The notes: generated by a model from the letters alone, not told the origin. Shown: positions 21,278 to 53,837, numbered from the stretch's first letter. The stretch is DNA of 64,000 nt from a virus (IMGVR_UViG_3300006217_000002), one strand, 5' to 3'. Program-made: numbers and translations.

Positions 21278-21340
21278 CAACGACGGGAGGGGGCCATTCG
21301 GTCCTCTCCCTATATTTTTACATTTAAAGGAGGAATGATA

Positions 21341-34771: not shown

Positions 34772-35107
34772 ATGAACATTGCACAAATTAAAGAAATGCT
34801 TAAAACTCCTCAATATGGGTTTTTAAAAGAGAATCAGCATCTTGGTTCAAATGTTATTTTGCTGACTCTTGGAGGTAGTCATGCATATGGAATGAATAAC
34901 GAAAATTCAGATCTTGATGTGAGAGGAATATCTTTAAATTCAAAAGAGGAAGTTTTACTTGGAAGAGACTTTGAGCAGGTAGTAAACGTAGAGACGGATA
35001 CAACTGTGTATTCATTCAATAAAATGATTCAGCTTCTTACATCCAATAACCCTAATACGATTGAAATACTTGGATGCAGAAATGATCATTATGTCTACCT
35101 AACTTAG
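34772..35107 (+). CDS. Minimal nucleotidyltransferase (MNT, Pol-beta fold). It ends at an in-frame TAG.
   Basis: LGGSHAYGMNNENSDLDVRGI (GS...DxD) at ~34871-34920. RBS AAGGAGG. Confidence 0.7.
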   Translation: MNIAQIKEMLKTPQYGFLKENQHLGSNVILLTLGGSHAYGMNNENSDLDVRGISLNSKEEVLLGRDFEQVVNVETDTTVYSFNKMIQLLTSNNPNTIEILGCRNDHYVYLT

Positions 35108-35254
35108 TTAGGTAGACAATTAATCGAAAAGAGGAAAATATTTCTATCTAAAATTTGTATTCATACATTTGCAGGATATGCTGGTTCACAGCTGAGGAGA
35201 TTGGAAAATAAATCAAATCGATTGGTTGGGCAAGCTCAACAGGAGCAGTATATC

Positions 35255-35800
35255 ATGAAGAGCGTCGCAAATGCACGATATGATTTTAAACATAGATATT
35301 ATCCTCACAATGAAGGCGGCATTAAGCTTTATATAGACGAAGCTGTACAGGAAGGATTCGAAACAGAGATATTTATTGATTGTAACTTGGAACATTATCC
35401 TTTACGTGATTATGCTGGAATGATTAATGAAATGAAATCTATTGTTAATCATTATGGCAAGATAGGTAAGCGAAACGAGAACGCAATTAGTCATAATAAG
35501 TTAGGCAAACATATGGCTCATTTGATCAGACTATATATGATGGCTATCGATATACTGGAAAAAGAGGAGATAATCACATATCGTGAAAACGAGCATGATC
35601 TATTAATGAGCATAAGGAATGGAGAGTATTTAGATTCAAATCGTCAACCTACTTCAGTATTCTATGATATTCTGAATGAATATGAGAAGAGATTTGATTA
35701 TGCTGTAGAAAATACTTCATTACCTGATAAGCCTAACATGAAAGAGATCGATGAGTTCAGAGCTTATGTAAATGAAATGATCGTGAAAGGAGAAATATAA
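35255..35800 (+). CDS. HEPN-like or NTase-associated helical domain protein. It lies in the same frame as the MNT; the track starts it at TTG 35201.
   Basis: Rx6H motif KRNENAISHN (~35470-35495). AGGAG 9 nt upstream of ATG 35255. No stop between 35108 and 35254 in the MNT frame. Confidence 0.55.
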   Translation: MKSVANARYDFKHRYYPHNEGGIKLYIDEAVQEGFETEIFIDCNLEHYPLRDYAGMINEMKSIVNHYGKIGKRNENAISHNKLGKHMAHLIRLYMMAIDILEKEEIITYRENEHDLLMSIRNGEYLDSNRQPTSVFYDILNEYEKRFDYAVENTSLPDKPNMKEIDEFRAYVNEMIVKGEI

Positions 35801-35802
35801 TC

Positions 35803-36732
35803 ATGGATATCTCTGTAAAATTAAAAGAAAGATTCTGTAAGGATTATAAGATTCCAATTAACTTATTTCAGGAGCCGTACTTTACTGAGCGAATCAATCT
35901 ATATGATAAAGTATATGGTACAATTAGTAAGTACGAAAGATTTATAAATGCGATGAAGAAATACTCCACAGAGCAAGATTATTTTGAAGAATATAATAGA
36001 ACTAAAGACGTAGCCATTGACTTTATCAAAGGAACAGAAGCATATCAACGATTTAATACAGAAGATATGAATAAGTTTGCTGTTGATAATAGAGGTATTT
36101 CTAAACACGATATTTTCAAACCATCTAATGATGGTAAGTTGTTTATCAGTATAGATATGGTCAAGGCTAACTTTTCTGCTTTATCGCATTATGATAGTTC
36201 TATATTTGGTGGAGCTGAAACTTGGGAGGAATTCATATCTAGATTTACAAACAATGATCATATTATCAATAGCAAATATATCCGTCAGGTCATTCTTGGA
36301 AATTGCAATCCAAAGAGACATGTTACTTACGAACGATATCTTATGTCGAAAGTTCTATATATTCTTGAAAATTGCAAATATATAGACAACGTCGTATTTT
36401 ACAGCGATGATGAAATTGTTCTAGATATGTCTAATAACTTTCTTAGTAGATATGAATTTGAAAAATTTTGTAGAATGTTTGGTCTTGTGTTTCCATTAAG
36501 ATTCGAATATTTTACGCTTCATAAAATAGGTGGAATTGATGGATATGCAAAATGCTTTCGCAGTGACTGTGGAGCACCAAGGGTAGAATTTAAGTGTATT
36601 GATGGATATTCTCTGCCTTTTATCATGAGAAAATATCTTGGTGAAGTTATCACTGAAAACGATAAAGTGTTTTATCATAATGGATATTTAGCAAAATATA
36701 TAGAAATTCCTAATGTAGAATTGAGGTGGTAA
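35803..36732 (+). CDS. Hypothetical protein (309 aa) within the nucleotidyltransferase/CCA operon
   Basis: ORF with AAAGGAG RBS. Confidence 0.5.
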   Translation: MDISVKLKERFCKDYKIPINLFQEPYFTERINLYDKVYGTISKYERFINAMKKYSTEQDYFEEYNRTKDVAIDFIKGTEAYQRFNTEDMNKFAVDNRGISKHDIFKPSNDGKLFISIDMVKANFSALSHYDSSIFGGAETWEEFISRFTNNDHIINSKYIRQVILGNCNPKRHVTYERYLMSKVLYILENCKYIDNVVFYSDDEIVLDMSNNFLSRYEFEKFCRMFGLVFPLRFEYFTLHKIGGIDGYAKCFRSDCGAPRVEFKCIDGYSLPFIMRKYLGEVITENDKVFYHNGYLAKYIEIPNVELRW

Positions 36733-38108
36733 ATTTGGCTATTAGTAAAATCATTGGGGAAATGAAAGCTATTTCTCGAATTTGTATACCTGATGAAGTA
36801 AGAAGCATCATTAATATGCTAAATGATTCAAATTACAAAGCATACGTTGTTGGAGGTGCAGTGAGGGATAGCATTCTTGGAAGAGAAGTACATGATTGGG
36901 ATATATGTACATCTGCAACTCCTTATGAAATGATGACTGTCTTTAAAGATTTGAGAGTTATAGAAACAGGTCTTCAACATGGTACTATCACTGTACTTAT
37001 TAATGATATGCCAATTGAAGTAACAACGTTCAGAATCGATGGTAAATATTCTGATAACAGAAGACCTGATAACGTTACATTCACTGACGATCTTACAGAA
37101 GATTTACGAAGAAGAGACTTCACTATGAATGCAATTGCTTACAATCCTACAACCGGTATTGTTGACCCATTTGATGGGATTGGTGATATCGAAGAAAAAG
37201 TAATTGTATGTGTAGGATCTGCAAAAGATCGTTTTGAAGAAGATGCCCTGAGAATTCTCAGGGCATTGAGGTTTGCTGGACAATTAAACTTTGCATTGGA
37301 TAGTGATATAACTAAAGAGATTAGGAATTTATATAAGTTATTATCTAATATATCAATGGAAAGAATAAACAGTGAATTTTGCAAAATTATGCAAACAGAT
37401 ATGATCAATGTTATTGTCTTACAATACCCTGAATTGTCCAAATTGCTTATTCCTGAACTTGAAGATATGAGAGACTTTAATCAAAATAATCCATACCATG
37501 AGTTTGATGTTTTATATCATACTATGATGGCGTTGAGACGAAGTGGAACTAAAGATCTGATCATTCGCCTAGCAATTTTATTTCATGATATTGGTAAACC
37601 TTTTTCATATCAGGACGGTGATGACGGTCATAGACATTTTAAAGGTCATGGAAGAATAAGTGCAGAAATAGCTGGTAAGATAATGACCCGTATGAAATTT
37701 GACAACGATACGAGGGATAAAGTTGTTGAATTAATATATTACCATGATGCAACATTTCAGGTAGGAAAGAAATATGTAAAACGGTGGCTGAATAAAATAG
37801 GAGAAGATCAGCTCAGGAGATTACTAATTCTTAGAAGAGCCGATATCATGGGACAGAAACTCAATTATGAAAAATCAAGAATTGACAAAGTTAGCAAAAT
37901 GGAATTAGTGCTTGATGAAGTTAAGAAAGATAACGAATGCTTTACACTGAAAGACTTAGCTGTCAATGGTAATGATCTTATTCAGTTAGAATATAAACCT
38001 GGAAAAGAACTTGGAAATGTATTGCACAAATTACTTGATGAGGTAATAGATGGTAATGTAAACAATGACAAAGATGAGCTATTAAAATTATCAGAATCTT
38101 TTCACTAA
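36726..38108 (+). CDS. cca: CCA-adding tRNA nucleotidyltransferase with an HD domain; GTG start
   Basis: YVVGGAVRDSILGREVHDWDICT (~36851-36920). HD region LFHDIGKP...HFKGHGRISAEIA. Confidence 0.85.
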   Translation: MVNLAISKIIGEMKAISRICIPDEVRSIINMLNDSNYKAYVVGGAVRDSILGREVHDWDICTSATPYEMMTVFKDLRVIETGLQHGTITVLINDMPIEVTTFRIDGKYSDNRRPDNVTFTDDLTEDLRRRDFTMNAIAYNPTTGIVDPFDGIGDIEEKVIVCVGSAKDRFEEDALRILRALRFAGQLNFALDSDITKEIRNLYKLLSNISMERINSEFCKIMQTDMINVIVLQYPELSKLLIPELEDMRDFNQNNPYHEFDVLYHTMMALRRSGTKDLIIRLAILFHDIGKPFSYQDGDDGHRHFKGHGRISAEIAGKIMTRMKFDNDTRDKVVELIYYHDATFQVGKKYVKRWLNKIGEDQLRRLLILRRADIMGQKLNYEKSRIDKVSKMELVLDEVKKDNECFTLKDLAVNGNDLIQLEYKPGKELGNVLHKLLDEVIDGNVNNDKDELLKLSESFH

Positions 38109-38148
38109 ATAGTTATATATTATACTACAAATAGAAAGGAGAAAAGAT

Positions 38149-38313
38149 ATGGTAGTATTAGTTATACTTGTGCTTTTAGGAGCAGTAGTTTTGTGGTTTT
38201 TATTATCACCGTTATTTGGCAAAATTGGAGATTCAGTTTCCAAGAAAAGCCAGAAAATGTTTAGTGATGATGAAGATAAAAATACTGGAGAGGAGGGAGA
38301 AGAACATGAATAG
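38149..38313 (+). CDS. Unlisted 54-aa single-TM protein with an acidic tail
   Basis: AAAGGAG 6 nt upstream. Encodes MVVLVILVLLGAVVLWFLLSPLFGK... Confidence 0.45.
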   Translation: MVVLVILVLLGAVVLWFLLSPLFGKIGDSVSKKSQKMFSDDEDKNTGEEGEEHE

Positions 38314-38387
38314 TGGATAAAATATAACATAAATATCACACTTTGAAACTAATAACAAAGCACCTTTAAAAAGGAGAATAAAGAATA

Positions 38388-39341
38388 ATGAGTAAAGCAA
38401 AGAAAGTCACTGGAGGTATTGTAGCAGCTGTTGTAATCGTGGTAGCTCTCGTGTTAGTTGCACTGAGTCTGAGGAAGATCGACGCAGGCTATTCAGGAGT
38501 AGTCTATTCCATGAACGGTGGAATTGAGGATCGTGTGCTTGGTCAGGGTTGGCATTGGATTAAGCCTGGTCAGAAGTTGATTCCATATAGTATCGGTATC
38601 GAACAGTCATATCTTACGGCTACCAAGGATGGTGACTCTCCTGACGATGATAGTTTCTCAGCTCCTTCCAGCGATGGTAAAGGGTTGACAATGGAGCTTA
38701 CTTTCACATATCGCTTTGATGAAGACAGGCTTCCTGAGATCTTTACGAGATTTAAAGGAAGAAGCGGTAAGGAAGTACTGAATACATTCATTAAACCTAA
38801 TATCATTAGCTGGTCTAAGGAAGTAACGGCTAAATATCCCGTTACTGAAATCTTAGGAGAAAAGAGATCAGAACTCAATAACGTACTGTCTGATTATCTC
38901 GCTGAGAAGTTCTCTCCTTACGGTATTATCATCGAAAATGCATCCCTTATCAATATTGAAACTGATGATGAAACCAGAGCATCTATCACTCGTAAGGTAA
39001 CAGCTCAGCAGGAGCTTGAATTAGCAAATATCGAAGCAAAAACAGCTAAGATTCAGGCAGAGAAAGATAAAGAAGTAGCCCTTATTGAGGCAGAAAAGAA
39101 TAAGGAAACTGCAGCTCTTAAGGCAGAACAGATGGCAATTGAAGCTCAGGGTAAAGCAGATGCTTTGAAGATCGCGGCAGAAGCAGAGGCAGAAGCAAAC
39201 CGTAAGATTGCTCAGTCTCTTACACCTGAATTGATCGAGAAGATCAAGTATGAGCAGTGGAATGGAGAACTTCCACAGGTTCAGGGTTCGTCTACACCGA
39301 TCATCGATTTCAGAGAAGACGGTGTGGCAACTACGGAATAA
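38388..39341 (+). CDS. SPFH/band-7 domain membrane protein (prohibitin/HflK-like)
   Basis: N-terminal TM helix. Band-7 core. A/E/K-rich coiled coil QQELELANIEAKTAKIQAEKDKE... Confidence 0.7.
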   Translation: MSKAKKVTGGIVAAVVIVVALVLVALSLRKIDAGYSGVVYSMNGGIEDRVLGQGWHWIKPGQKLIPYSIGIEQSYLTATKDGDSPDDDSFSAPSSDGKGLTMELTFTYRFDEDRLPEIFTRFKGRSGKEVLNTFIKPNIISWSKEVTAKYPVTEILGEKRSELNNVLSDYLAEKFSPYGIIIENASLINIETDDETRASITRKVTAQQELELANIEAKTAKIQAEKDKEVALIEAEKNKETAALKAEQMAIEAQGKADALKIAAEAEAEANRKIAQSLTPELIEKIKYEQWNGELPQVQGSSTPIIDFREDGVATTE

Positions 39342-39558
39342 TACATAAAGTAATAACAGGGATAATTGGAGCAATACATTGCTCCAATTATTTTTTTGCT
39401 AAACTAAGCGCAATTGTGGTAAATAAGATTATGGGATATAATACGGATATACTCCAATGTACAGAGTGTAATTTGGATTATTATCTTTCTTTTAATAATA
39501 ATATATAATAATATATAAAATACAGATGTATAAACTATACGGGAAGGAGGAAGTTATT

Positions 39559-39903
39559 ATGTTCGATATCACACCATTAGTGCTATTGGTTATTGCAGCA
39601 GGGGTAACAGCCATTGCATATTTCGGGAGGAAATATGTAGCTCCGGTTCTTAAAGATCAGATGACAATTGAGGAAAGAAGAAACCTCTATGATGCTGTTG
39701 TAATCGGAGTAGCAGCTGCTGAACAGCTGTGCAAGACAGGTGTAATCAAGAAAGATGAACGAATTCAGCATGTATTCGATTTTCTCGAAGCTAACAATAT
39801 CACATATGACAGAGATGTTGTTAATGACATGATCGAAGCCGCTGTTCTTGATTTACCTAAATCTTTTCTTGGTCTTGAAGACGAAGAGAAAAAGAAAGAA
39901 TAA
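39559..39903 (+). CDS. Putative holin-like small membrane protein. Start trimmed; the track lists 39526.
   Basis: GGAAGGAGG then ATG. TM helix PLVLLVIAAGVTAIAYF. Confidence 0.4.
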   Translation: MFDITPLVLLVIAAGVTAIAYFGRKYVAPVLKDQMTIEERRNLYDAVVIGVAAAEQLCKTGVIKKDERIQHVFDFLEANNITYDRDVVNDMIEAAVLDLPKSFLGLEDEEKKKE

Positions 39904-39916
39904 CTGAAAAGATCAT

Positions 39917-39951
39917 AATAAGGAAGGGAGGATGATCCTCCCTTCCTTATT
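39917..39951. terminator. Bidirectional terminator
   Basis: aataaggaagggaggatgatcctcccttccttatt. Confidence 0.65.
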
Positions 39952-39956
39952 ATTGT

Positions 39957-41573
39957 TTATGATGTACTTCTAACGAATTCTACATCTTTCTTAGGAATAT
40001 CTTTAATTTCAGGATAACTCTTAGATCTTGCTCTATGAGTTCTAACGTAATAGCCGTTTTTATCCTTAGCTAAAGAGCAAGCAGTTGATTTCCCGAATAA
40101 CTTATAAAATTCATTTCTCTCAGATGAAGTAATCGCATTTATTTCTTTCTTCATCTTTTCATACGCCTTTTTACTTTCAGTTATCGGTTCCTCTTTCTTA
40201 GGATCTTCTTTCTTCTCTTCCTTTGGAGTAGTTTCTTTCTTAGGTTTATTGACAGCAGCTTTCTTTTCATCAACTACTTCAATCTTGGAAAGTTCTTCGT
40301 TGATGATCTTATTTACTCTATTCTGGAATTCTCCAAAGTTTGTAAGATATTCATCTAAGATCTTCTCAAGTTCTGTTAAGTCTTCCTGTAACTGTTTCTT
40401 TACGATTGTAGATGTATTAGGATCTGCTATATCAGATTTATATTCCTTAATTAATGCACGAGCCCTGTGAATGTTTGTTTTATGAACATCATTAATAGAA
40501 TCTTGAACGATCATAACAATTATATCCTGTCTTGTTCTTTCTTTTTTAAAACGAGAATTAATCATCTTTTCAGATTCTTTATCAAGTTTCTTAAGGCCGT
40601 TTAAAAGCTGAGGACCAAATCCATACATACGAGCAAAGTTATCTGCAAATGCTTCTGAAAATTCTTGTCTTGTAAACTTATCTTTGTCAGATTCAATCAT
40701 CCTTCTAACTTTTTCCAGCTTCTTCTGTTGAACTTTTTCTTTACCTAAGATTTTATCTCTAATGGCATTGAATATAGAACTTACAAGAGTTCCTACCAAT
40801 AATACTCCAAAAATACAAAAGATAACAATAAAATTGTTTTTATGCTTATCTATAAATTTCTTTTCATTTTTATTGATAGCATGCTTTCTATCTGTAAGAT
40901 ATTTAGATAGAATATTCACTTCTGTGTATTTAATATCTACTAAAGCAGGATCGATAGAATGACCAAATTCATGTAACATAACTGCCATGATTTCTTCTTC
41001 ACTCAATGCTCTTATTAAGCCGAGAGAAAGATATACATTCATTCTTACTGATTTACTCTTGTCATAGAATCCTTTATCTGTCACAAGACCTTCAATGGGA
41101 AATCTATCTGCATGATAAATTTCTGCGTTTAGAATTCTACTCTCAAACATCTTCTCTTTGGAATTATATTTCTCAATATAAGGTTCTATAGAAACATCTC
41201 TAAAACCAAATACTTTTGAGAATTCATCTTCGAGTTGTTTGAATAGTTGATTCTTCCAGAAAGCTTTTGGATCAAAGTATTTAACTTTGGTTTTAGTTAC
41301 AGGCTCTCCTTTCTTTCTTTTATTATCAGCATCCTTATTATTTTCAATTCCTTTATCCTGCTCGGCAATTTGAGATTCCAATAGATCTTTGATCTTTTTG
41401 ATAGTTTCTACAATTGGCATCACACTTTCTTTACCGTTAGCAAATACTGCCTCTGTATAAAACTGATCAATAGACTTCTCGACTTCTACAGATTCATCAA
41501 ACAAATTTAAAGAGAAATTAGAAGATGGATCTGATTTCTTTTCAGGGATGGTTAGATTAATAACGTCATACAT
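39957..41573 (-). CDS. Membrane zinc metalloprotease (HExxH) with a lysine-rich C-terminal tail
   Basis: IMAVMLHEFGHSIDP. TM helix FIVIFCIFGVLLVGTLVSSIF. AAGGAG RBS on the minus strand. Confidence 0.6.
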   Translation of the reverse strand: MYDVINLTIPEKKSDPSSNFSLNLFDESVEVEKSIDQFYTEAVFANGKESVMPIVETIKKIKDLLESQIAEQDKGIENNKDADNKRKKGEPVTKTKVKYFDPKAFWKNQLFKQLEDEFSKVFGFRDVSIEPYIEKYNSKEKMFESRILNAEIYHADRFPIEGLVTDKGFYDKSKSVRMNVYLSLGLIRALSEEEIMAVMLHEFGHSIDPALVDIKYTEVNILSKYLTDRKHAINKNEKKFIDKHKNNFIVIFCIFGVLLVGTLVSSIFNAIRDKILGKEKVQQKKLEKVRRMIESDKDKFTRQEFSEAFADNFARMYGFGPQLLNGLKKLDKESEKMINSRFKKERTRQDIIVMIVQDSINDVHKTNIHRARALIKEYKSDIADPNTSTIVKKQLQEDLTELEKILDEYLTNFGEFQNRVNKIINEELSKIEVVDEKKAAVNKPKKETTPKEEKKEDPKKEEPITESKKAYEKMKKEINAITSSERNEFYKLFGKSTACSLAKDKNGYYVRTHRARSKSYPEIKDIPKKDVEFVRSTS

Positions 41574-41640
41574 TTATTCTCTCTCCTTTACTATTAATAA
41601 TAAATTTCTATATAAGATTAAAGAAAGGTGGATGGTAGCT

Positions 41641-42468
41641 ATGGCTATTAACGAAATTGTAAAAAATGCATTGAAAACTCATAAGAGTAAGATTGAAGTA
41701 ACTCAGTGGGCGATAATTGATGGGGTGGCTTCATTGATATATTCTGAATACATATATAATATGAAGAATAAGGTCACGCCAGGTAGAACAATATTGATGG
41801 TTCCTAAAATATCGGCTGTACAAGAATTACTTTCTGAAGAAAGTCAATTGATTACATGGATTTCAGATAATCTCATAGATAAAATGTTGGATGATCTTCT
41901 GTTTAAACAGTTTATTGAATCTCCTGAGTTGGAAATGTTTAAAGAAAATAATGTAGAGATTATGAAGACTATTTTAGATCTTTATATAATTCCAAACATT
42001 AGTAGATGTATTCCAAATACAATAGCAAAGAAATTTGCTATAGGAGATCCAAAGAATCAGGATATTAGAGAATCGAATGAAATAGATTTATTCTCTAGAA
42101 AACCTATTCCTGATGATTATTTAAACTATCTATCCCATGAGATTGTTTTAAACCTATTGACTCTATTGCCAACTATTAAGAAGGATATCACTGTTCCTGA
42201 AAGTAATGCATCTATTCAGATGTCTGCATCAGAAATACTTACAATAAAAAATGTGAATGCAATATGTCCAGTGTTAATTGATAATGTAATATTTCATAAT
42301 ACTATAATGAATTTATTATCGTTTGTAACAAATACTACAATTAAAGCGTTGGATAATACAGAAAATGTTGGTCTTAAGAATAATAAATTATCAATCGACT
42401 ATATAGTTTCTACTGGAGCTTTCAATAATGTATCTCTGACTCACCTTAATAAGGAGGAATGTATATGA
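41641..42468 (+). CDS. Hypothetical protein. Start trimmed to the ATG with an RBS.
   Basis: aaagaaaggtggatggtagctATGG. Confidence 0.45.
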   Translation: MAINEIVKNALKTHKSKIEVTQWAIIDGVASLIYSEYIYNMKNKVTPGRTILMVPKISAVQELLSEESQLITWISDNLIDKMLDDLLFKQFIESPELEMFKENNVEIMKTILDLYIIPNISRCIPNTIAKKFAIGDPKNQDIRESNEIDLFSRKPIPDDYLNYLSHEIVLNLLTLLPTIKKDITVPESNASIQMSASEILTIKNVNAICPVLIDNVIFHNTIMNLLSFVTNTTIKALDNTENVGLKNNKLSIDYIVSTGAFNNVSLTHLNKEECI

Positions 42469-42680
42469 AAGCTAAATTTATAGGTAAAAATGGTTCAATG
42501 GGATTTAAGAGGGGTAAAGTTTATGATTTAAGATGTGAGATAAAACCAGGTACATGGAATGGGAGGTAGACGCATTGTATTTATATACTTATATAGTAAA
42601 TGTGATAATTCCTAGTGTCCGTATGAATCGCTTGAATCAGTGTTAGCAAATTGGGAAATCCTTGGGTAGAATAAGTGAAT

Positions 42681-42712
42681 AATAGAGAGGTGGGATATCC
42701 CACCTCTCTATT
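42681..42712 (+). terminator. Intrinsic terminator
   Basis: aatagagaggtgggatatcccacctctctatt. Confidence 0.6.
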
Positions 42713-42786
42713 ATGTTTATCCTAATAATTATTTTGAAGATATATTATCTAAATAATAATAGAAAATATTTTGGAGGTTTATATAG

Positions 42787-44832: not shown

Positions 44833-44900
44833 TAAAATTAAATACAAACAAGAACAATTAATGTATTAAATGCAATATAATAAGGAGGATAATATAAGTT

Positions 44901-45713
44901 ATGGCATTGATACCAAGTCTTGATGATAAATTACCACCAACTGATTGGAAACCTGAACCTGTTCCAGAGGGTTCAGACTTTGCCCAATCATATATGGATG
45001 ATCAAAGTAGTGCGGATGAAACTGTTGACTATAGTGAATTGATAGCCGAATCTGCATTCTTAGGAGATTATCCATTAGCAACTATTCTTGAAGGAATTGA
45101 GACACAATTTTCTGATTATATAAATATGGAGGATAAAAGTAATTACGTAGACATATTTTATGATCAGCTTCATTATTCTTATGAAGAGGCACATAAAGAT
45201 CTGGAACATCCTCAGGAACTTAAAGAGGCGCTCGATAAGATCCTCGATACGTTCGTTGATAAACTTAATCAGTTATTCAATAAGCGTTTAACAATTTCGA
45301 TTAATGGTATTGAAGGAGAGGATATCGACGAAAACGAATTAGAATTCATCTTAAGGCGTTTATATGAGTTCTTCATACTTGGAGCTCGTAATAACTTTAA
45401 GGTTGTTATTTCATCTGACGTAAACTACAAGACTGCCAACATTAAAGTCGAAGATGATGACGTAGCATTCTTTAATAAGATTGATGAATTACTAAGTCAT
45501 TATAGTCCTCTCATTCTTGAAATAGGACCGATGGAGTTCCTTAAATACAGAGGAGATCAGGAAATATATGAACTCTTCGCAAGTGGAAAAGTTAATGGTA
45601 ATTTCCTGAGGAAATATACACCAAAGTTATATCAGAATGAAGAGTTCAGAGTAGAACTAATTAACCATATCATACTGACTAAGGAAGTTAAGGAGGAATT
45701 ATTAAATGAGTAA
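44901..45713 (+). CDS. Acidic hypothetical protein
   Basis: RBS AAGGAGG. Confidence 0.45.
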   Translation: MALIPSLDDKLPPTDWKPEPVPEGSDFAQSYMDDQSSADETVDYSELIAESAFLGDYPLATILEGIETQFSDYINMEDKSNYVDIFYDQLHYSYEEAHKDLEHPQELKEALDKILDTFVDKLNQLFNKRLTISINGIEGEDIDENELEFILRRLYEFFILGARNNFKVVISSDVNYKTANIKVEDDDVAFFNKIDELLSHYSPLILEIGPMEFLKYRGDQEIYELFASGKVNGNFLRKYTPKLYQNEEFRVELINHIILTKEVKEELLNE

Positions 45714-46398
45714 TCCAAATAATAGAACACAGACATCTACACAGATCAGGAATTTCTATTCAGAAGGAATGTCTTATTTGAATATGAAGTTTTATAACAC
45801 TAATCTTTCATTTCAGTTCTATCCATTCACAGGTAAAGATCAGAATGGAAGATCTACCTATGATACAAAGAATGGTGAAACTACGACAGTTAATTTTGAA
45901 GGTGCATTCACTCTATGGAAAGCAGCTAAAGATATCATTGACGGGAAAGTTACAGAGACTGATCTTCCTATTCCTTGTGCATCTGGAGCATCTCTGAAGC
46001 TTGAAAGAAAATTAAATCCTAATGGACAGTATGATACAATTCTTTCTATCAGTAAGAATAATCGTACAATTCCTTTCAAGTTTAACGTTATGCAGCAGCA
46101 GGTTAAAGAGAATAACCAGATTGTTACTAAGGTGATTGAATCTGGTCTTGGTGCTGTAATGATGACAATCGAAGGATATCTCACTGGTATTAATGCTGAT
46201 AGGCATCTTAATAAGTTAACTGATGATTTTGCTAAGATTCAGGAAGGTAACAATGGAAACGGTTACAATGGTCAGAATAATTATAAGAAACCTGTTAACA
46301 ATAATAATTACAGGAAGAATTATAATAATCAGGCATCATGGCAGCCTGCTCAGCCGAGCCAACAGCAGAATCTCAGTACTTATTCGCTCCCGAATTAA
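45706..46398 (+). CDS. Hypothetical protein with an N/Q/Y-rich low-complexity tail. It may be an SSB-like protein, but that is unsupported.
   Basis: RBS AAGGAGG. Tail NGNGYNGQNNYKKPVNNNNYRKNYNNQ. Confidence 0.35.
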   Translation: MSNPNNRTQTSTQIRNFYSEGMSYLNMKFYNTNLSFQFYPFTGKDQNGRSTYDTKNGETTTVNFEGAFTLWKAAKDIIDGKVTETDLPIPCASGASLKLERKLNPNGQYDTILSISKNNRTIPFKFNVMQQQVKENNQIVTKVIESGLGAVMMTIEGYLTGINADRHLNKLTDDFAKIQEGNNGNGYNGQNNYKKPVNNNNYRKNYNNQASWQPAQPSQQQNLSTYSLPN

Positions 46399-46430
46399 CC
46401 CTGTCTTTGTAATGTAAAGAACGGGTAAAT

Positions 46431-46466
46431 AGGATGAGGGATTGCCGCCCTCATCCTATTTTTTTT
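46431..46466 (+). terminator. Intrinsic terminator
   Basis: aggatgagggattgccgccctcatcct plus attttttttg. Confidence 0.7.
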
Positions 46467-46492
46467 GCTTGAAATAGATGGAGGTGATACTA

Positions 46493-47227
46493 ATGGGTTT
46501 TGAATCTAAATTTGATACGAATGCTTTCTTTCCTGGTGGTGCAGGAATGTTCATTCAGTATCATGATGTGTTGAAACCTGCATATTTATATGCAATTGTT
46601 AAAATGATAATTACTGATCAAACTTATGGTCTTCCTCTTTTTTTGATAAAAGATTTTTCAATTCTTTCCATAATAGAATGGTACATCAAAAGAAGATATT
46701 TAAATCCATTACAACAACTGGATTTTATGCATAAGTTAGATCCTGATGAATTAAATAATTTGATGCAATATATTTTACTCAACGACGATTCTATTTACAA
46801 GTTAAGTCCTCCATTAAATATTTGCAGGCTATTTGATGTATATAGACAACAGCATATGTCATTTCCAGTATACGTCTACAGCAAAGAAGAGGAGCGTTAT
46901 ATTCCAAAAGATTGTGAAAATATTCTTAGTGGAATTGATTATACTTATCTCCATGGAGATCTTAAAACTGCTATAAGCAAGTGCAATCAAAATTTCACTT
47001 ATATATTTTCTGATATAGAAATGGTCAATTTGGCTTCAAAAATTTTGAGAGGCACATATTCTCATATCCTATTAACACGAGATTATCGATATAATTACAT
47101 CGATAACTGTAAAACATTTAAATATGATTTGCAAAGTTTAGCTTCTGCAAATCCAGTAATACGGATTGGTACTACTATTGCAATGGATATAAGATTGATG
47201 CCTAATGCTTTTTCAAATATTATTTAG
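46493..47227 (+). CDS. Hypothetical protein
   Basis: gatggaggtgatactaATGG. Confidence 0.45.
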   Translation: MGFESKFDTNAFFPGGAGMFIQYHDVLKPAYLYAIVKMIITDQTYGLPLFLIKDFSILSIIEWYIKRRYLNPLQQLDFMHKLDPDELNNLMQYILLNDDSIYKLSPPLNICRLFDVYRQQHMSFPVYVYSKEEERYIPKDCENILSGIDYTYLHGDLKTAISKCNQNFTYIFSDIEMVNLASKILRGTYSHILLTRDYRYNYIDNCKTFKYDLQSLASANPVIRIGTTIAMDIRLMPNAFSNII

Positions 47228-47239
47228 GAGGATGGATAC

Positions 47240-48946
47240 ATGTTACAAATCAATTCACTTAAGCCTATAGAAAAGGCTCAAGAAATACCTAGATGGAAGT
47301 ATAAGAAACACGCATTTCCTAATGGGGCTGCATCATATTGGATTAAATGGAAGCTATATCCAGATGATGCACGATTCTTTTCATTACCAAAAACAATGAT
47401 TATCAAGTTTGATAAAGAGCTTGATCATATAGACAATGAGAACATTTCAGCTCTTAATGAATGGAAAGTTACAAAAATCTCATATTCTTCATATCTTCCT
47501 CGTATGTGTGAAGAATTAAATTTCTTCGAAACAATGTATGATGAAGAAGGAGAATTGATCACATCATTATTCAGAATAAAATATCTGATCGATGTTGATA
47601 ACATTTCCTATACAATGGCCAACTTTGCAGCATTCAAAGATTTGGTATATAAGACAATTTTTACCAATTCTATGAAGGAAAAAATTATCAGGATGATTGA
47701 AGAGAATTATGTTGATGACATAGAAGCAGAGAATATGAAGAACATGCAGAATCCTGATATGCTTTCAATCATGCAAAGAAAGAAGAAATCATTGGAATTC
47801 TTAAACGTACATGTGAAAGCTATGCTCCAGATTTCATTTGGTATAAAGATCTTGTCATTCATTATTAATCACTTTGCTGTTATGAGAAATATTAACATTC
47901 AAAAGAATATTGATATCTTCTATGATTTCTACATAGATATGTTTAATGTATTTGAGTTTGACTTTAATATCTACAATAAGATCTATGCATATGTAGAAAA
48001 TAAAGTTAATAGCTCATATAACTTTAACAAGTCTATCTTTGAACAGCAAGAGATAGAAGGAAAGGACAAATCTATCATTATAAATCAGCTTATGTCCAGG
48101 AACGTTATCATTGACAACTTCATCAAGTTCCAGATGCCTCAGACATGGAATTCAGTTAAGGAACAACCTAAAGAAAGAGTGTTATCTTTCTTAGCAAGTA
48201 TTATCAATACTCATATCTCTATCTTTATAATGCAGGTATTCAGACGTAATTTGATAGAGACATCTATAGTTCCAGATGCAGACGGTAATTCTAAAAATGA
48301 TCGTTATCGTGCATCAAAAATGAAGATCAATGAAGAGTATATCACAACTTGTTCTATGGATATGAGACAGCTTACAGATAAACTCTTTAAGAAATATGAG
48401 AATGAAATTACTCCTGAGGAAATTGAATACTACAGGAAAAACTTGAAACCGAATAGATTACATCAATTGATGATTGAAATCTATTTCTTCAATTACACTG
48501 CATCGTCACAAGAATTTGCTTTATTGAAAAACATAGATTGGTACAAGCTTCTTTTGATAATGAGAAAAGACATCATGAAGAGATTTAATATTACAAAGGA
48601 TTCTTTACTCGATGCTAGTCTGTGTTTGATTATGACAGCAAATATTGAAGAAACTCCTGTTGGAGAAAAGATGTATGTAAAAGATACAAAATACTTCAAT
48701 GACGATCCTGGTTATAATATGCTTATTGATAAATTCTACAGTACAATCGTGGAAATCAATGAGGATATAATTAAGAAGTTCTTAATAACATTTACCAATA
48801 GCAAGTACAGATTTGTACTGTATGAAGAACAGGATATACTCGGTGAAGAGATATCAATAAATAAGAGAGAGCTGATGTCAGAACTTATCAACTTCTTGAT
48901 TATGGCTAATACTAACATCTCACTGGAAAATATGTTTGATGATTAA
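47240..48946 (+). CDS. Hypothetical protein (568 aa)
   Basis: RBS TAGGAGG. Confidence 0.5.
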   Translation: MLQINSLKPIEKAQEIPRWKYKKHAFPNGAASYWIKWKLYPDDARFFSLPKTMIIKFDKELDHIDNENISALNEWKVTKISYSSYLPRMCEELNFFETMYDEEGELITSLFRIKYLIDVDNISYTMANFAAFKDLVYKTIFTNSMKEKIIRMIEENYVDDIEAENMKNMQNPDMLSIMQRKKKSLEFLNVHVKAMLQISFGIKILSFIINHFAVMRNINIQKNIDIFYDFYIDMFNVFEFDFNIYNKIYAYVENKVNSSYNFNKSIFEQQEIEGKDKSIIINQLMSRNVIIDNFIKFQMPQTWNSVKEQPKERVLSFLASIINTHISIFIMQVFRRNLIETSIVPDADGNSKNDRYRASKMKINEEYITTCSMDMRQLTDKLFKKYENEITPEEIEYYRKNLKPNRLHQLMIEIYFFNYTASSQEFALLKNIDWYKLLLIMRKDIMKRFNITKDSLLDASLCLIMTANIEETPVGEKMYVKDTKYFNDDPGYNMLIDKFYSTIVEINEDIIKKFLITFTNSKYRFVLYEEQDILGEEISINKRELMSELINFLIMANTNISLENMFDD

Positions 48947-48959
48947 AGAAAGGAGTAAT

Positions 48960-49340
48960 ATGATTAAAATATTTGATACACGCCAAACTGGAAAGACTAC
49001 AAAGATAATTAAACTTTCTTCAGAAAATAACTGGCCAATTATTGTTACAGATATGAACAGACTTAATTATGTGCTAAAATTAGCAAGAGATAAAGGAGTT
49101 AATATTCCTACTCCTATAACAGTAAATGATATGTTGAATAATAATGCAAAGTTTTTTAGAATTGATCAGGGTGTTATTATTGACGATGCTGATCAGATGT
49201 TAAGTATGATTATTCGTATGAAAATATCTCCTATGTCTGATATAAAAGCAATATCTATGGATATGTCTAATAAGACAGTAGAAAAATCTAATATCTTCGA
49301 TAAAATTTATGAATTATTCAAAGGAGGTAAAGAAAAATGA
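48960..49340 (+). CDS. Small protein, paralogue A of a tandem pair
   Basis: aaagaaaggagtaatATG. Its N-terminus MIKIFDTRQTGKTTKIIKLSSENNWPIIVT resembles the next ORF. Confidence 0.45.
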   Translation: MIKIFDTRQTGKTTKIIKLSSENNWPIIVTDMNRLNYVLKLARDKGVNIPTPITVNDMLNNNAKFFRIDQGVIIDDADQMLSMIIRMKISPMSDIKAISMDMSNKTVEKSNIFDKIYELFKGGKEK

Positions 49341-49666
49341 AGAAAGCAATTTCTGGAAGGCAGACTGGTAAAACTGAGAAACTTATTAAGTTATCTGCTG
49401 AGAAACAGATTCCAATTCTTGTTACAAGCATTGCTTCTGTAAGACAACTTCAGAAACGTGCAAAGAGAATGGAACTATCAATCCCTGAACCTATTTCAGT
49501 TTCTCAATTAATGAGTGATGCATATTTAAATAATATTAGTGAAATTCCTAATATTATTGTAGATGATGCAGAGTTTGTTCTTAGGGAGATTTTATCAACT
49601 CGTAAGGTTCGATCAGTAGAAGCAATCGCAATTTGTACTGATGATCCATGTGATGAGATGATATAG
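49337..49666 (+). CDS. Small protein, paralogue B of the tandem pair
   Basis: MKKAISGRQTGKTEKLIKLSAEKQIPILVT. RBS AAAGGAGG. Confidence 0.45.
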   Translation: MKKAISGRQTGKTEKLIKLSAEKQIPILVTSIASVRQLQKRAKRMELSIPEPISVSQLMSDAYLNNISEIPNIIVDDAEFVLREILSTRKVRSVEAIAICTDDPCDEMI

Positions 49667-49676
49667 GAGGATTCAT

Positions 49677-50312
49677 ATGGCAGTACTAAATAAAACAAAA
49701 ATCTATTATGATGCAGAATTCACAGGTTTGACAAAAGACACGTCGCTAATTAGCATAAGTTTCGTTACTGACACTAATGATTATTTCTATGCTGAATTTA
49801 CTGATTACGATCAGAGTAAAGTAGACGGGTGGTTAAGACAACATGTAATCGATAATCTTCTATTTAGACCTGATGATGAAGAGTATCAGAGATATGTTGA
49901 CGATAATAGAAGTATTGTAATGATGACAGGTAATTCAAACTTTATCAGAACAAAGCTTCTTCAGTGGTTATCAGGAATATCAGAACTCACAGGAAAACAG
50001 ATTCAGATTTATACCGATTGCTATGCATATGATTGGGTTCTTCTTAATGATCTAATATGTAATGGAGCTCCTGCTATCAATATTCCTAAGTTCTTATACT
50101 ACATACCTGTTGATCTTTGTACTTTGATGCAGTATAAAGCTATAGATCCTGATATGAACAGGGAAGAATTTATAGGAGCAGAGAAAGTAAGAACTTTAAT
50201 GGCAATTGATCCTTTTGGTGAATTATCTCAAAATAAGAATATTAAACATAATTCTTTATGGGATGCATTTGTTGCCAGAGAATGTTTTCGTAAAGTTAAC
50301 TTGATGAACTAG
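49677..50312 (+). CDS. DEDDh 3'-5' exonuclease (DnaQ/RNase T-like)
   Basis: Exo I IYYDAEFTGL (~49704-49730). C-terminal HNSLWDAF (H-x4-D). Confidence 0.65.
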   Translation: MAVLNKTKIYYDAEFTGLTKDTSLISISFVTDTNDYFYAEFTDYDQSKVDGWLRQHVIDNLLFRPDDEEYQRYVDDNRSIVMMTGNSNFIRTKLLQWLSGISELTGKQIQIYTDCYAYDWVLLNDLICNGAPAINIPKFLYYIPVDLCTLMQYKAIDPDMNREEFIGAEKVRTLMAIDPFGELSQNKNIKHNSLWDAFVARECFRKVNLMN

Positions 50313-50319
50313 TACCAAC

Positions 50320-50351
50320 AGAGGTTGGGAGCATTTCTCCCAACCTCTTTT
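50320..50351 (+). terminator. Intrinsic terminator
   Basis: agaggttgggagcatttctcccaacctctttt. Confidence 0.65.
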
Positions 50352-50373
50352 AACATTTTAAGGAGGTAAAACA

Positions 50374-51225
50374 ATGGCAGATCGTAGTGATTTAGCAAAA
50401 AGAATGAAGGAAAATTATGAGAATCGTGCAAAGCATTCATTAATTAGGAGGATGCCAGTTGCAATCAGAATTGATGGTAAAGCTTTCCATAGTTTTACAA
50501 GAGGATTTAAGATTCCATTTGATGAAGTATTGATTCAGTCGATGCAGGAGACAATGAAATATCTTTGTGAACATGTACAGGGATGCGTATTAGGATATCA
50601 TCAATCAGATGAGATCACCCTTATTCTTGTTGATTATCAAAATTTACATTCTGATGCCTGGTTCGATTATAAACAAAGCAAAGTAGAATCAATTTCTGCG
50701 TCCATGGCAACAATGGCATTCAATAAGTCGTTTGAAATCAATGCTAACAACTACATCGCTAATGTGCATGTGGGAGGGGGCGTTCCTACAGATGGCAAGT
50801 ATATAGAATCGCTTAAAGCTGCGATTGAAAATAAAGCGATGTTTGATTCAAGGTCGTTCAATATTCCTAAGGAAGAAGTAACAAACTTGATCTTATGGAG
50901 ACAACAAGATGCAACAAGAAATTCTATTGAGATGGTTGGTAGAACATATTTCTCTGATAAGAGATTATATAAGATAAACACCAATGGTATTCAGGATCTT
51001 TTATTTACAGAAAAAGGAGTAAATTGGAATGATTTTCCTACTCATCAAAAGAGAGGTTCTTGTTGTATTAAAGAAAATTACCTGGTAGATACAGAAGGAA
51101 ATGAACATCCATTATCAGAGGATAAACCTGAAATGTCTCTACGTAGTCGTTGGGTTATAGATAAGGAAATTCCTATCTTTACAGGAGATGGAAGAGAATA
51201 TATTGAGAAACTTATCAATATTTAA
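50374..51225 (+). CDS. Thg1-like protein (tRNA-His guanylyltransferase family 3'-5' nucleotidyltransferase) with a C-terminal extension
   Basis: VAIRIDGKAFHSFT. GYHQSDEITLIL (the GQSDE-type motif, ~50596-50631). LILWRQQDATRN (WRQxD). Confidence 0.75.
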   Translation: MADRSDLAKRMKENYENRAKHSLIRRMPVAIRIDGKAFHSFTRGFKIPFDEVLIQSMQETMKYLCEHVQGCVLGYHQSDEITLILVDYQNLHSDAWFDYKQSKVESISASMATMAFNKSFEINANNYIANVHVGGGVPTDGKYIESLKAAIENKAMFDSRSFNIPKEEVTNLILWRQQDATRNSIEMVGRTYFSDKRLYKINTNGIQDLLFTEKGVNWNDFPTHQKRGSCCIKENYLVDTEGNEHPLSEDKPEMSLRSRWVIDKEIPIFTGDGREYIEKLINI

Positions 51226-51242
51226 ATTGGAGGAAAATAAAA

Positions 51243-51452
51243 GTGTCTAAAATTAGAGGAAAGAAATTAACCCGTCAACAGTATGGCATTCTAAATCGTA
51301 ATGGTATTACTGATACAGAGAATTGGCTTTATCTTAAAACTGAAACAACTAAGCCTGACGGAGATAAATCCCCCGCAAGAAATTCTGATAAGATCACATA
51401 CATGGTGTTTCAGAATAGAGATAACGGCGAAACAATGAAAATTGAAGTATAG
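51243..51452 (+). CDS. Small hypothetical protein with a GTG start
   Basis: ttggagg RBS. Confidence 0.4.
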   Translation: MSKIRGKKLTRQQYGILNRNGITDTENWLYLKTETTKPDGDKSPARNSDKITYMVFQNRDNGETMKIEV

Positions 51453-51461
51453 GAGGTAAGA

Positions 51462-51728
51462 ATGACTATAGAACAAAAATTTCTTAAAAGTAGAGGTATT
51501 GTGAATTTTACAAATCATCATTTTGTTGGAATTGAAAATTCTCCAATTAAAGAAACTGATTTGGCAGGTCATGAAGTTTTACGCCTTCATTTTAAGAAAC
51601 ATGATCCATTTAATAATAAACCAGCAGAAGATGTGTATTATCCAATTATAAAATTGGACAAACCATATCATGCTCTTAATAGTGGATTCTATATTATTAA
51701 TGGAGAAATCACTGAAATATTAGTTTAG
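51462..51728 (+). CDS. Small hypothetical protein
   Basis: RBS TAGGAGG. Confidence 0.45.
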   Translation: MTIEQKFLKSRGIVNFTNHHFVGIENSPIKETDLAGHEVLRLHFKKHDPFNNKPAEDVYYPIIKLDKPYHALNSGFYIINGEITEILV

Positions 51729-51745
51729 ATAGGAGGTATTAATAC

Positions 51746-53128
51746 ATGCGAATAAAATTTTCACGATTGAATTTTGAATCAGAATGCATGTATGATTGCA
51801 TAAACGGAAAAGGATTCCTTATTTCAGATACTCCGTTTTCAGATGTAGATAAGTCCGTTAGAAATATGGATGGTCCTAGATCTCCTAGATATGGTACTAC
51901 ATACGGTGATACTAATGAGTTTATGGATAGATATCACTGTAAATGTGGTAAATATATAGGAGCTGCATTTGAAGGAGAAGTGTGTCCGGAATGTGGAACT
52001 AAGATTGAATATAAGGACGTAGACATTCTATATACAGGATGGCTTAACTTCTATCCTTATAAAATTATTAATCCTTTATTCTATCAACGTTTACAATCAG
52101 CATTATCAAAGAAGAACTTAGAGAATATCATCTCTAATGAAAATATAATAACATCTCAAGGTATCATAAGAAAACATACTGATACGATTGAAGTTAAGAA
52201 ATCTATGCTTACATATCATAATATTGGTATGAAAGAGTTCTATGATAACTATGAAGAGATCATGCTTTATTATAAGAGCAAAAGAAAACAGAAGGCTGAA
52301 TTGATAGATTCACTTATAAGAGATAAAGATCTTGTATGGACTGACAAGTTACCAGTATATTCTACAGTATTGCGTCCTCAAGGAATTACAGTTGAATCAT
52401 ATTACTTCTCTCCTATTGATAAACAGATTCATCCTTTAACAAACATCACGTTGAACTTAAAGAAAGCATCTGCTATTGAAGTTCCACTGTACTTATATCA
52501 AGCTCAGATGAGAGCTAATGAACTGTGGAATTTGAATTTCTCGTTGATTGATGGTAAACATGGATGGACAAGAGCTAATGTGCTTGGTGGAGAATTTAAC
52601 TTCTCAGGTAGATCAGTTATTGTCCTTGATCCTACATTACACATCGATGAAGTTGACATTTCATACAAAGCCTTCATCGTACAGTATAGGGGATTAATAC
52701 TCCGAAGAATCATTAAAGATAAAGGATGGACTATTACACGTGCTGCGAATTTCTTATCATCTAAATTCGAATATGATGATTATGTGTACAAGATAATGTG
52801 TGATGTGATAGAAGAGGACAAGCCTAAGCTTATACTTAATAGAAATCCTACAATCACATTCGGAAGTATTTTATTAATGTCAATACGAAGCGTCAAGAAA
52901 GATTCCGGAGATGTAACTTTAGCAATTCCTAGTGCCATACTTCCTGGTCTAAACGCTGATTTTGACGGTGATGTTTTAAATACATTAGCATTAGAAATGG
53001 AAGAGTTCTGGGAGTTGTTTGATGGATTTACTCCTACTAATATGCTGATTAATCGTACTAATAGCTCTATCAAGTATGATATATCGGCGTTGGAGAATAT
53101 TACTATTGCTATTCTTAGTGATAAATAA
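51746..53128 (+). CDS. RNA polymerase beta-prime-like subunit fragment (zinc-ribbon plus catalytic DFDGD region)
   Basis: NADFDGDVLNTLA (~52952-52990) matches the universal beta-prime NADFDGD. N-terminal CKCGKY...CPECGTKI zinc motif. Confidence 0.7.
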   Translation: MRIKFSRLNFESECMYDCINGKGFLISDTPFSDVDKSVRNMDGPRSPRYGTTYGDTNEFMDRYHCKCGKYIGAAFEGEVCPECGTKIEYKDVDILYTGWLNFYPYKIINPLFYQRLQSALSKKNLENIISNENIITSQGIIRKHTDTIEVKKSMLTYHNIGMKEFYDNYEEIMLYYKSKRKQKAELIDSLIRDKDLVWTDKLPVYSTVLRPQGITVESYYFSPIDKQIHPLTNITLNLKKASAIEVPLYLYQAQMRANELWNLNFSLIDGKHGWTRANVLGGEFNFSGRSVIVLDPTLHIDEVDISYKAFIVQYRGLILRRIIKDKGWTITRAANFLSSKFEYDDYVYKIMCDVIEEDKPKLILNRNPTITFGSILLMSIRSVKKDSGDVTLAIPSAILPGLNADFDGDVLNTLALEMEEFWELFDGFTPTNMLINRTNSSIKYDISALENITIAILSDK

Positions 53129-53299
53129 ATTTTCCTGAGCATTTTGGTTTATAGGATCTTTTCACTAATTAGTTATATATTATAAAAATATAGAAAGGAG
53201 GTGATCAATTGGTCACATTACGTGAGACCTAATTATAATACTGATAGAAATATTTGTTAGAGAGAATGGATATATGATAACAGAAAGAAGTGAATAATA

Positions 53300-53779
53300 A
53301 TGCCAACAGAAATTGAAAGAAAATGGTTATTAAAAACATTCCCAGCTATGGAAGGAGCATCTCATAGTGAGGTGGAGATAATATATCTTTCTACAGAACC
53401 TGAAATTAGAGTAAGGAAAAAAGTAGATTTACATAATGAAAAATGCAAATATATTATTACATTAAAATCAGATGGTTCTGTTTCACGTAAAGAATATGAG
53501 AGTAAAGTAAATAAAGAAATATTTGAAGGTGCTAAGATTTTGGTTCCAACGCCTCCTATCAATAAAGAACAATATAAACTTCAAGTTGATGAGCATATGA
53601 TTGTATTTAATAATGTCAATAACAATACATTCTTGTATGCAGAAGTAGAGTTTAAGACAGAAGATGAGGCTAATAAATATATTTTTCCATTCGACGATAT
53701 TGTGATTAAAGAAGTGACATACGATCCTAAATATAAAATGAAAAATTACTGGAAAGAAACCGTTAAACTTCATTCATAA
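53300..53779 (+). CDS. CYTH-domain (triphosphate tunnel metalloenzyme) protein
   Basis: N-terminal PTEIERKWLLK (ExExK). Repeated ExE strands EVEIIYL, EPEIRVRKK and YAEVEFK. Confidence 0.55.
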   Translation: MPTEIERKWLLKTFPAMEGASHSEVEIIYLSTEPEIRVRKKVDLHNEKCKYIITLKSDGSVSRKEYESKVNKEIFEGAKILVPTPPINKEQYKLQVDEHMIVFNNVNNNTFLYAEVEFKTEDEANKYIFPFDDIVIKEVTYDPKYKMKNYWKETVKLHS

Positions 53780-53796
53780 TATGATTCATCAGATAT

Positions 53797-53837
53797 AATA
53801 AAGGAGGGGTATTGATACCCCTCCTTTATTTTTTTAT
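53797..53837 (+). terminator. Intrinsic terminator
   Basis: aataaaggaggggtattgatacccctcctttatt plus a T-run. Confidence 0.7.

Follow-up and report, generated by a model that had tools for sequence, protein, structure and literature searches.

The 64,000-nucleotide stretch of viral DNA IMGVR_UViG_3300006217_000002, analysed at full length and referred to here as the window, encodes several enzymes that act on RNA ends. On balance, we interpret these as a dispersed RNA-end-rebuilding guild, whose most likely role is to keep tRNAs chargeable despite damage to, or trimming of, their acceptor ends during infection. The core of the guild is an operon of RlaP, a polymerase-like unknown that we designated X, and a CCA-adding enzyme with an HD domain, followed by a Band-7 gene; a second island holds a Thg1-like protein (TLP) after a DEDDh exonuclease, and a third holds a Ro60/TROVE-vWA gene. 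Domain identities, catalytic residues and a synteny conserved across unrelated phages and Lachnospiraceae genomes were observed. A first-pass annotation had proposed a 19-kb cluster of five RNA-end enzymes at 34772-53779. The part that concerns RlaP, CCA and TLP stands, as these genes are linked in other genomes; the DEDDh and CYTH enzymes are unlinked, and the genes here fall into at least two predicted transcription units. X (35803-36732), Band-7 and a Ro60 homologue 15 kb upstream are members beyond the five that had been named.

The class II CCA-adding tRNA nucleotidyltransferase with a C-terminal HD phosphohydrolase domain, annotated at 36726-38108 (+ strand; alternative TTG start at 36735), was upheld by domain profiles, motifs and sister-strain gene calls. 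The protein contains a PolyA_pol head (PF01743, 4e-38), an RNA-binding domain, an HD domain (PF01966, 5e-10) and a tRNA_NucTran2_2 match (3.7e-12). It scored 303.5 bits against the NCBIfam CCA equivalog NF009814 (cut-off 290), and the PcnB (158 bits) and A-adding models fell far under their own cut-offs. The HDIG model of the HD domain scored 28.5 against a cut-off of 27.6. The motifs GGAVRD..DWD, RRD, EDALR and HDIGK can be read in the protein, which is complete.

The TLP at 50374-51225 (+ strand) was likewise borne out, with a PF04446 match of 2.3e-27 (95.9 bits against a gathering cut-off of 29.2) and GYHQSDE and WRQQD motifs. Its best sequence match was the Bacillus thuringiensis TLP (BtTLP, 4KGK), an enzyme of bacterial tRNA 5'-end repair, at 2.3e-57, compared with 1e-5 to 6e-9 for eukaryotic Thg1; judged by sequence, it is of the bacterial type and not a eukaryotic tRNA-His-specific Thg1. 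Residues D34, D79 and E80 align with D30, D75 and E76 of BtTLP, the essential carboxylates of that enzyme (PMC3701042), and the equivalents of R28 and E12 are also conserved. Loss of the carboxylates had been named as a finding that would refute the proposal, and since the TLP retains them, this refutation fails. The phage protein differs from BtTLP in an insertion of about 35 residues (approximately 120-154) and a smaller one near 240-250. It is predicted to be an active 3'-5' polymerase.

The region at 34772-35800 had been read as a minimal nucleotidyltransferase with a HEPN partner. It is instead one gene of 343 codons (+ strand) for a RlaP-family Pol-beta nucleotidyltransferase; in this strain an in-frame TAG (35105-35107) cuts the gene. 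The two open reading frames (ORFs), 34772-35107 and 35201-35800, share one frame with one TAG between them, and match the N-terminal (positions 19-125) and C-terminal (positions 189-336) parts of phrog_388. The N-terminal part matches PF10127 (8e-13; 49.1 bits against a cut-off of 23), and the Pol-beta motif GGSHAYG...DLDV is visible. The supposed HEPN partner was rejected: this second ORF continues the frame of the first, gave no HEPN match and corresponds to the C-terminal portion of phrog_388/RlaP. X, a 309-amino-acid (aa) protein of a large uncharacterised family (35803-36732, + strand), lies between RlaP and CCA, and because its start and stop abut those genes, translational coupling is suggested.

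The arrangement of these genes was compared across 80 IMG/VR loci that carry TLP (41 lineages at 80% identity, with the window and three GenBank phages included), 80 viral loci that carry X (17 lineages) and 35 bacterial genome loci that carry X. Neighbours of TLP were counted within 10 kb. In the viral X loci the order RlaP-X-CCA was fixed, with RlaP immediately upstream in 74 of 80 and CCA immediately downstream in 59 of 80; by lineage, RlaP was found in 14 and CCA in 9 of the 17. RlaP also adjoined X in 17-18 of the 35 bacterial loci, most of which were from mouse- or human-gut Lachnospiraceae, and these X/RlaP pairs suggest a host range. TLP loci had CCA (21/80), Ro60 in the form of DUF2828 (19/80), RlaP (16/80) and Band-7 (4/80) as neighbours. 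On one NCBI contig (L100), RlaP, X, CCA, a DHH-like gene and TLP form five abutting genes; in a second locus (L020) RlaP, CCA and TLP are contiguous with Band-7 6 kb upstream, and in one lineage RlaP-CCA, Ro60 and TLP occur in that order inside 10 kb. Other recurrent neighbours of TLP were a calcineurin-like phosphoesterase (9 lineages), an AAA_33 kinase (6) and Acb1 (5), together with NAD-dependent DNA ligase, DHFR, SIR2 and NAMPT. The recurrent neighbours are end-healing and counter-defence functions, and the recurrence of RlaP, CCA and TLP in unrelated phages, often in counter-defence islands (Acb1, NAD salvage, SIR2), fits RNA-end rebuilding.

Further genes adjoin the cassette elsewhere. 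Directly after CCA, proteins of two unannotated families, each about 306 aa long, are encoded (L100 10301-11221; L171 10286-11209); they carry DHH and/or GGGH motifs, weakly match NrnA-type DHH/DHHA1 phosphoesterases (E ~0.05) and are likely end-trimming partners of the cassette in those phages. In several lineages (L124 4486-5826; L164 1400-4000), TerD, PspA-like, Band-7 and P-type cation ATPase genes lie a few kb upstream of RlaP-X, a membrane-stress-type set without obvious link to RNA repair.

No match to X was obtained in Pfam, PHROGs, NCBIfam, PADLOC or PDB sequences. Its family comprises 1394 close homologues and about 1800 cluster representatives at 50% identity. In a diverse alignment D118, at a strand end, the helix residues S157-K158-R161 and the beta-hairpin pair D203-E204 were invariant, and this order of Asp, Lys/Arg and Asp-Glu is the pattern of motifs A, B and C of right-hand polymerases. 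The predicted model appears to resemble the palm and fingers of family-B DNA polymerases, with the motif-A-like Asp, the motif-B-like Lys/Arg helix and the motif-C-like Asp-Glu hairpin modelled in the same order. In contrast to those polymerases, X is only about 310 aa, has neither exonuclease nor thumb domains and lacks the canonical motifs DxxSLYPS, Kx3NSxYG and DTD, so that the motifs are analogous in order and chemistry only. No sequence homology between X and family-B polymerases was detectable, with no Pfam match and an hhalign probability of 0.2% against the family-B polymerase of the window; X was therefore named polymerase-like and not assigned to that family. Domain fusions of X were uninformative save for one PLD-like fusion, and among cultured phages X was found only as gp208 of Salicola phage SCTP-2, among hypothetical genes.

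A speculative proposal, which we regard as doubtful, is that X represents a new kind of compact polymerase of the right-hand type, acting jointly with RlaP at RNA 3' ends as part of a ligase-independent, two-sided rebuilding of the acceptor stem. X could, for example, refill the recessed 3' strand of the acceptor stem with the 5' strand as template. TLP would perform the mirror image of this at the 5' end, and X, TLP and the CCA enzyme would together make up a two-sided pathway, widespread in gut phages and Lachnospiraceae prophages. The family is large, enzyme-like and unannotated, and the fixed place of X between RlaP and CCA makes its function directly testable.

For the guild as a whole, the substrate that we infer is tRNA, the purpose counter-defence, and the following order of steps and activity of X are put forward on the same footing. 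The 3' end would first be cleaned by the HD domain of the CCA enzyme or by an exonuclease. RlaP, whose bacterial homologues are known to add one or two nucleoside monophosphates to the 3'-OH of damaged RNA and to restore chargeable tRNA (PMC12776372), would then place one or two untemplated nucleotides on the 3'-OH; X may also extend RNA 3' ends at this step, possibly in a templated manner. The CCA enzyme would next restore CCA, and TLP would refill lost 5' nucleotides using the 3' strand as template, in keeping with the repair of 5'-truncated tRNA by bacterial TLPs (PMC3061083). Ro60 and Band-7 may serve as scaffolds that hold the RNA.

Neither an RNA ligase nor a polynucleotide kinase was found among 50 ORFs of the window, which covers 64 of about 285 kb, and ATP-dependent ligases were not explicitly searched. 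RlaP owes its name to being encoded near an RNA ligase. RtcB was absent from the window (tblastn) and from 198 related loci, and no RNA ligase occurred among 20 recurrent neighbour families. The lack of a ligase or kinase in the window suggests end rebuilding and not healing and sealing of the T4 type. The T4 Pnk/Rnl1 response to PrrC-cleaved tRNA-Lys is, like the guild, a phage-encoded answer to tRNA damage; in T4, however, a break in the anticodon loop is healed and ligated, whereas the enzymes described here act on termini at the acceptor end. RlaP is also a member of bacterial RNA repair operons of the RtcB-RlaP-RtcA and Pnkp/Hen1 types, but in the phage loci the place of ligase and cyclase is taken by X and CCA, joined in some cases by a phosphoesterase of DHH-like or calcineurin-like type.

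The concept of RNA-end rebuilding as counter-defence is already published. Anantharaman suggested in 2010 that the Thg1 of 201phi2-1, a phiKZ-like phage, repairs RNA as an anti-defence measure (PMC2904730), and Iyer in 2021 catalogued RlaP, CCA and Thg1 as end-restoring enzymes of jumbo phages (PMC7824862). The first-pass view that a phage TLP is noteworthy in itself is consequently not supported, as TLP is annotated in 164 GenBank phage records, has a PHROG family and was described from 201phi2-1 in 2010. The published jumbo-phage set (PMC7824862, PMC2904730) and the guild share the same three enzyme families, the Ro/TROVE accessory platform and the proposed role of restoring RNA-end bases lost to host attack. 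In that set, RlaP tracks RNA ligases, and Thg1 and CCA are sporadic in group 2 and 3 phages; here, in contrast, the carrier has a phiKZ/AR9-type core and RlaP is coupled to X and CCA, with no ligase or kinase in the window. What appears to be new is the fixed RlaP-X-CCA cassette, in which the coupled gene is a polymerase-like unknown and not a ligase, together with the merger, on occasion, of this cassette and TLP into one operon.

Host nucleases that cut tRNA are a growing class of anti-phage defence, and only the kinase-ligase repair of T4 is known in detail. If our interpretation is correct, a ligase-free, nucleotide-adding cassette would be a second route, in which ends are rebuilt and not rejoined, and it would provide a biological role for bacterial-type Thg1-like proteins, whose in vivo substrates have so far been unknown. 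If X and the rest prove ordinary, the window is a further example of the jumbo-phage RNA-repair repertoire already catalogued.

Several observations weigh against a rebuilding guild. In this genome the genes are split among three islands, with 12-15 kb between them, and are predicted to belong to different transcription units. The RlaP allele of the window, which 4 of 10 sister contigs share, has a nonsense codon, and one strain has lost Band-7; accessory parts are therefore dispensable. The absence of a ligase and a kinase (50 ORFs scanned, 64 of about 285 kb) also counts on this side, as does the lack of a known nuclease target, host defence or substrate. Finally, 70 of 163 TLP- or X-bearing loci (43%) have tRNA genes within 10 kb, often as arrays directly beside TLP, and 56 of the 156 unique tRNA genes in these loci (36%) have no encoded CCA; a role in tRNA maturation therefore fits equally well.

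Such a role is the main rival, and we allow it a minority chance. On this view, the proteins routinely mature and quality-control tRNAs of phage (and host) origin and do not repair defence damage; the CCA enzyme would finish the CCA-less phage tRNAs, and TLP, the exonuclease and Ro60 would proofread or trim the mis-processed ends of dense phage tRNA arrays. Against it, hosts already supply a CCA enzyme, and no tRNA gene or Rfam family was found in the 64-kb window itself. Ro60 is a known RNA quality-control factor (PMC12135203), as this reading would have it, but the only characterised substrates of RlaP are damaged RNAs (PMC12776372), and the Acb1, NAD salvage and SIR2 neighbours point to conflict islands. 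Addition of G-1 to phage tRNA-His was considered as the task of TLP and rejected, because the sole tRNA-His gene seen encodes both G-1 and CCA, so G-1 addition is unneeded there. Other RNA genes were recorded near TLP. CTA-anticodon tRNAs, which are of the amber-suppressor type and were called tRNA-Pyl by ARAGORN, occur on three unrelated viral contigs (L012 312-401, L048 5603-5677, L057 9787-9860), and tmRNA genes occur in two loci (L055 and L058).

A second rival, which we consider improbable, is that there is no single system and that the five genes first named are independent accessory genes in a nucleic-acid-metabolism region of a jumbo genome. Interspersed with these genes are a divergent family-B DNA polymerase, an RNA polymerase beta' gene, a holin and a gene on the opposite strand. 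From strong terminator-like hairpins at 39915-39953, 42679-42714, 46427-46461 and 53797-53830, there seem to be two separate transcription units, predicted as RlaP-X-CCA-Band-7-holin and as a unit that ends in two phrog_1828 genes, DEDDh, TLP, RNA polymerase beta' and CYTH. For RlaP, X and CCA this reading is hard to hold without functional coupling, as they form a tight operon here that is joined with TLP into one operon elsewhere. For CYTH it already holds, and for DEDDh it probably does.

The DEDDh 3'-5' exoribonuclease (Rv2179c/RNase AS-like; 49677-50312, + strand) lies 61 nt upstream of TLP. The annotation was sustained by a marginal PF16473 match (28.3 bits against a cut-off of 27), by phrog_2259 (2.2e-39) and by the motifs D12-x-E14 and H191-x4-D196, with the middle Asp placed by eye only; among named proteins, the exonuclease is closest to RNase AS, which is poly(A)-specific. 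The CYTH/triphosphate-tunnel protein at 53300-53779 (+ strand) was also correctly identified, from PF01928 (26.8 bits against a cut-off of 23.2), an N-terminal ExExK motif in the form EIERK and matches of about 1e-10 to 2FBL and 3TYP, which are NeuTTM-like structures. Absence of homologues from related phages had been named as a result that would count against the cluster. RlaP, CCA and TLP are adjacent in unrelated phages, but DEDDh and CYTH homologues were found in none of the 160 TLP- or X-bearing viral loci, and neither they nor phrog_1828 occurred within 10 kb of TLP in any of the 80 TLP loci. For jumbo-phage CYTH proteins, NTP hydrolysis has been put forward as the activity (PMC7824862). 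We conclude that CYTH is not part of the system and that DEDDh, linked to TLP in this phage only, is probably an unrelated neighbour. A gene beside TLP in one other locus (L069), tried as a distant DEDD homologue, is actually a calcineurin-like phosphoesterase. The two tandem small phrog_1828 paralogues at 48936-49666 (+ strand) carry a Walker-A-like TGKTT and a Walker-B-like IIDDAD; homologues adjoin RlaP-X in 3 of the 80 X loci, and the case for their membership in the guild is weak.

That the nucleotidyltransferases and the exonuclease instead remodel RNA 3' tails, by tailing and then decay of host or phage transcripts, is very improbable: the class II fold is common to the poly(A) polymerase PcnB (158 bits) and the closest named relative of the exonuclease is a poly(A)-specific RNase, but the CCA equivalog is above its cut-off with PcnB models far below theirs, the EDxxR and RRD templating motifs are present, and TLP has no part in 3' tailing.

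The TAG within RlaP was compared among ten sister-strain contigs. In 6 of the 10 the codon is AAG (Lys) and the gene is intact (342 aa); in the other 4 it is TAG. Reassignment of the stop codon was rejected, as TAG ends 13 of the 72 ORFs of the window in a standard genetic code, no other gene is split in this way and sister strains have AAG. The variable base, A or T at position 35105, is the centre of a perfect 27-nt palindrome with 13-nt arms (35092-35118, no strand assigned; TGTCTACCTAACT[A/T]AGTTAGGTAGACA) inside RlaP, and switches the codon between Lys (AAG) and stop (TAG). Because the variable base is the palindrome centre, the two alleles are reverse complements of one another. The palindrome is unique in the window, and more than 40 other RlaP genes lack it at the corresponding site, where the residue is variable. 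Position 35105 and a single-nucleotide polymorphism 300 nt away combine into all four haplotypes among the sister contigs, which implies either recombination or recurrent flipping; the cause could be switching mediated by a hairpin, or no more than recombination.

Other accessory genes are also broken or lost among these strains. Band-7 is missing from one sister strain (L093 8307-9030), a phrog_1828 paralogue is split in another (L006 8965-9293), and a split ORF in the window (56847-57364) is intact as 232 aa in a third (L004 16464-17162). Broken accessory genes are common in this phage population or in its assemblies, and ordinary loss-of-function polymorphism is therefore the default reading of the TAG. 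With RlaP knocked out by a nonsense codon here, the guild evidently works, or is tolerated, without it.

The Ro60/TROVE-vWA homologue (19712-21277, + strand), located 15 kb upstream of RlaP, matches Pfam DUF2828 and DUF7788 and has the TROVE ring and a vWA fold with a MIDAS motif. It is a candidate RNA-binding scaffold of the guild. A crystal structure exists for a phage Ro60, that of Thermus phage phiLo (PMC12135203). The homologue described here differs from such Ro60/Rsr proteins in that its sequence family is DUF2828/DUF7788 and not the TROVE model, and in that no adjacent Y RNA or tRNA-like partner is detectable. ARAGORN and Rfam, at gathering and permissive thresholds, identified no Y RNA or tRNA-like RNA beside Ro60 or Band-7, and the region upstream of Ro60 folds no better than shuffled controls (z = -1.0). 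Four exact copies of AGACNNNNACAGCAA lie upstream of Ro60 on the + strand (19118-19647), with 0.84 expected by chance across the window, and are partly inside short inverted repeats. A general promoter function for AGACNNNNACAGCAA was ruled out, as it forms only this local cluster of four copies. Directly downstream of Ro60, a 503-aa protein (21335-22846) combines sigma-70 region 4, the C-terminal domain of RNA polymerase alpha and a SAM-like domain.

The SPFH/Band-7 protein (38388-39341, + strand; PF01145, 1.8e-28) is likewise a candidate scaffold. Burroughs and Aravind reportedly proposed, in their 2016 work on RNA repair systems, both Band-7 and TROVE proteins as repair scaffolds. Band-7 homologues were found in 14 of the 80 X loci and 4 of the 41 TLP lineages, and the protein is dispensable, given the sister strain that lacks it. 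In the 280-nt gap between CCA and Band-7 lies a conserved 54-aa ORF (38149-38313) with no family match, which is called in every sister strain that retains Band-7.

The window is part of a mouse-gut jumbo phage of about 285 kb with replication and transcription genes of the phiKZ/AR9 type. Its proteins have exact copies on a 285-kb mouse-gut metagenome contig and on many further contigs. The DNA has about 33% G+C, and the + strand carries almost all predicted transcription. Products of the window include the divergent family-B DNA polymerase (PF20286), an RNA polymerase with split beta and beta' subunits, a GyrB-like topoisomerase and a tail lysozyme/M23 protein of 1981 aa. Among cultured phages, Bacillus phages AR9 and PBS1 have the DNA polymerases closest to this one, at 26% identity, and megablast of the region against GenBank phages gave no nucleotide match. 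A sigma-70 promoter scan of the window performed no better than on shuffled sequence, and is irrelevant here because the phage has its own RNA polymerase.

A stand-alone reverse transcriptase (31428-32874; RVT_1 8e-21, with generic reverse transcriptase and DRT-like PADLOC matches) lies directly after the RNA polymerase beta-like gene and is followed by an overlapping 115-aa ORF; the gene is split in one sister strain (L098). At the end of the window (61226-63084), a NadR-like gene, comprising a nicotinamide mononucleotide adenylyltransferase and an AAA_28 kinase, is followed by a PnuC-like nicotinamide mononucleotide transporter, a pair that represents NAD salvage of the kind linked to countering NAD-depleting defences.

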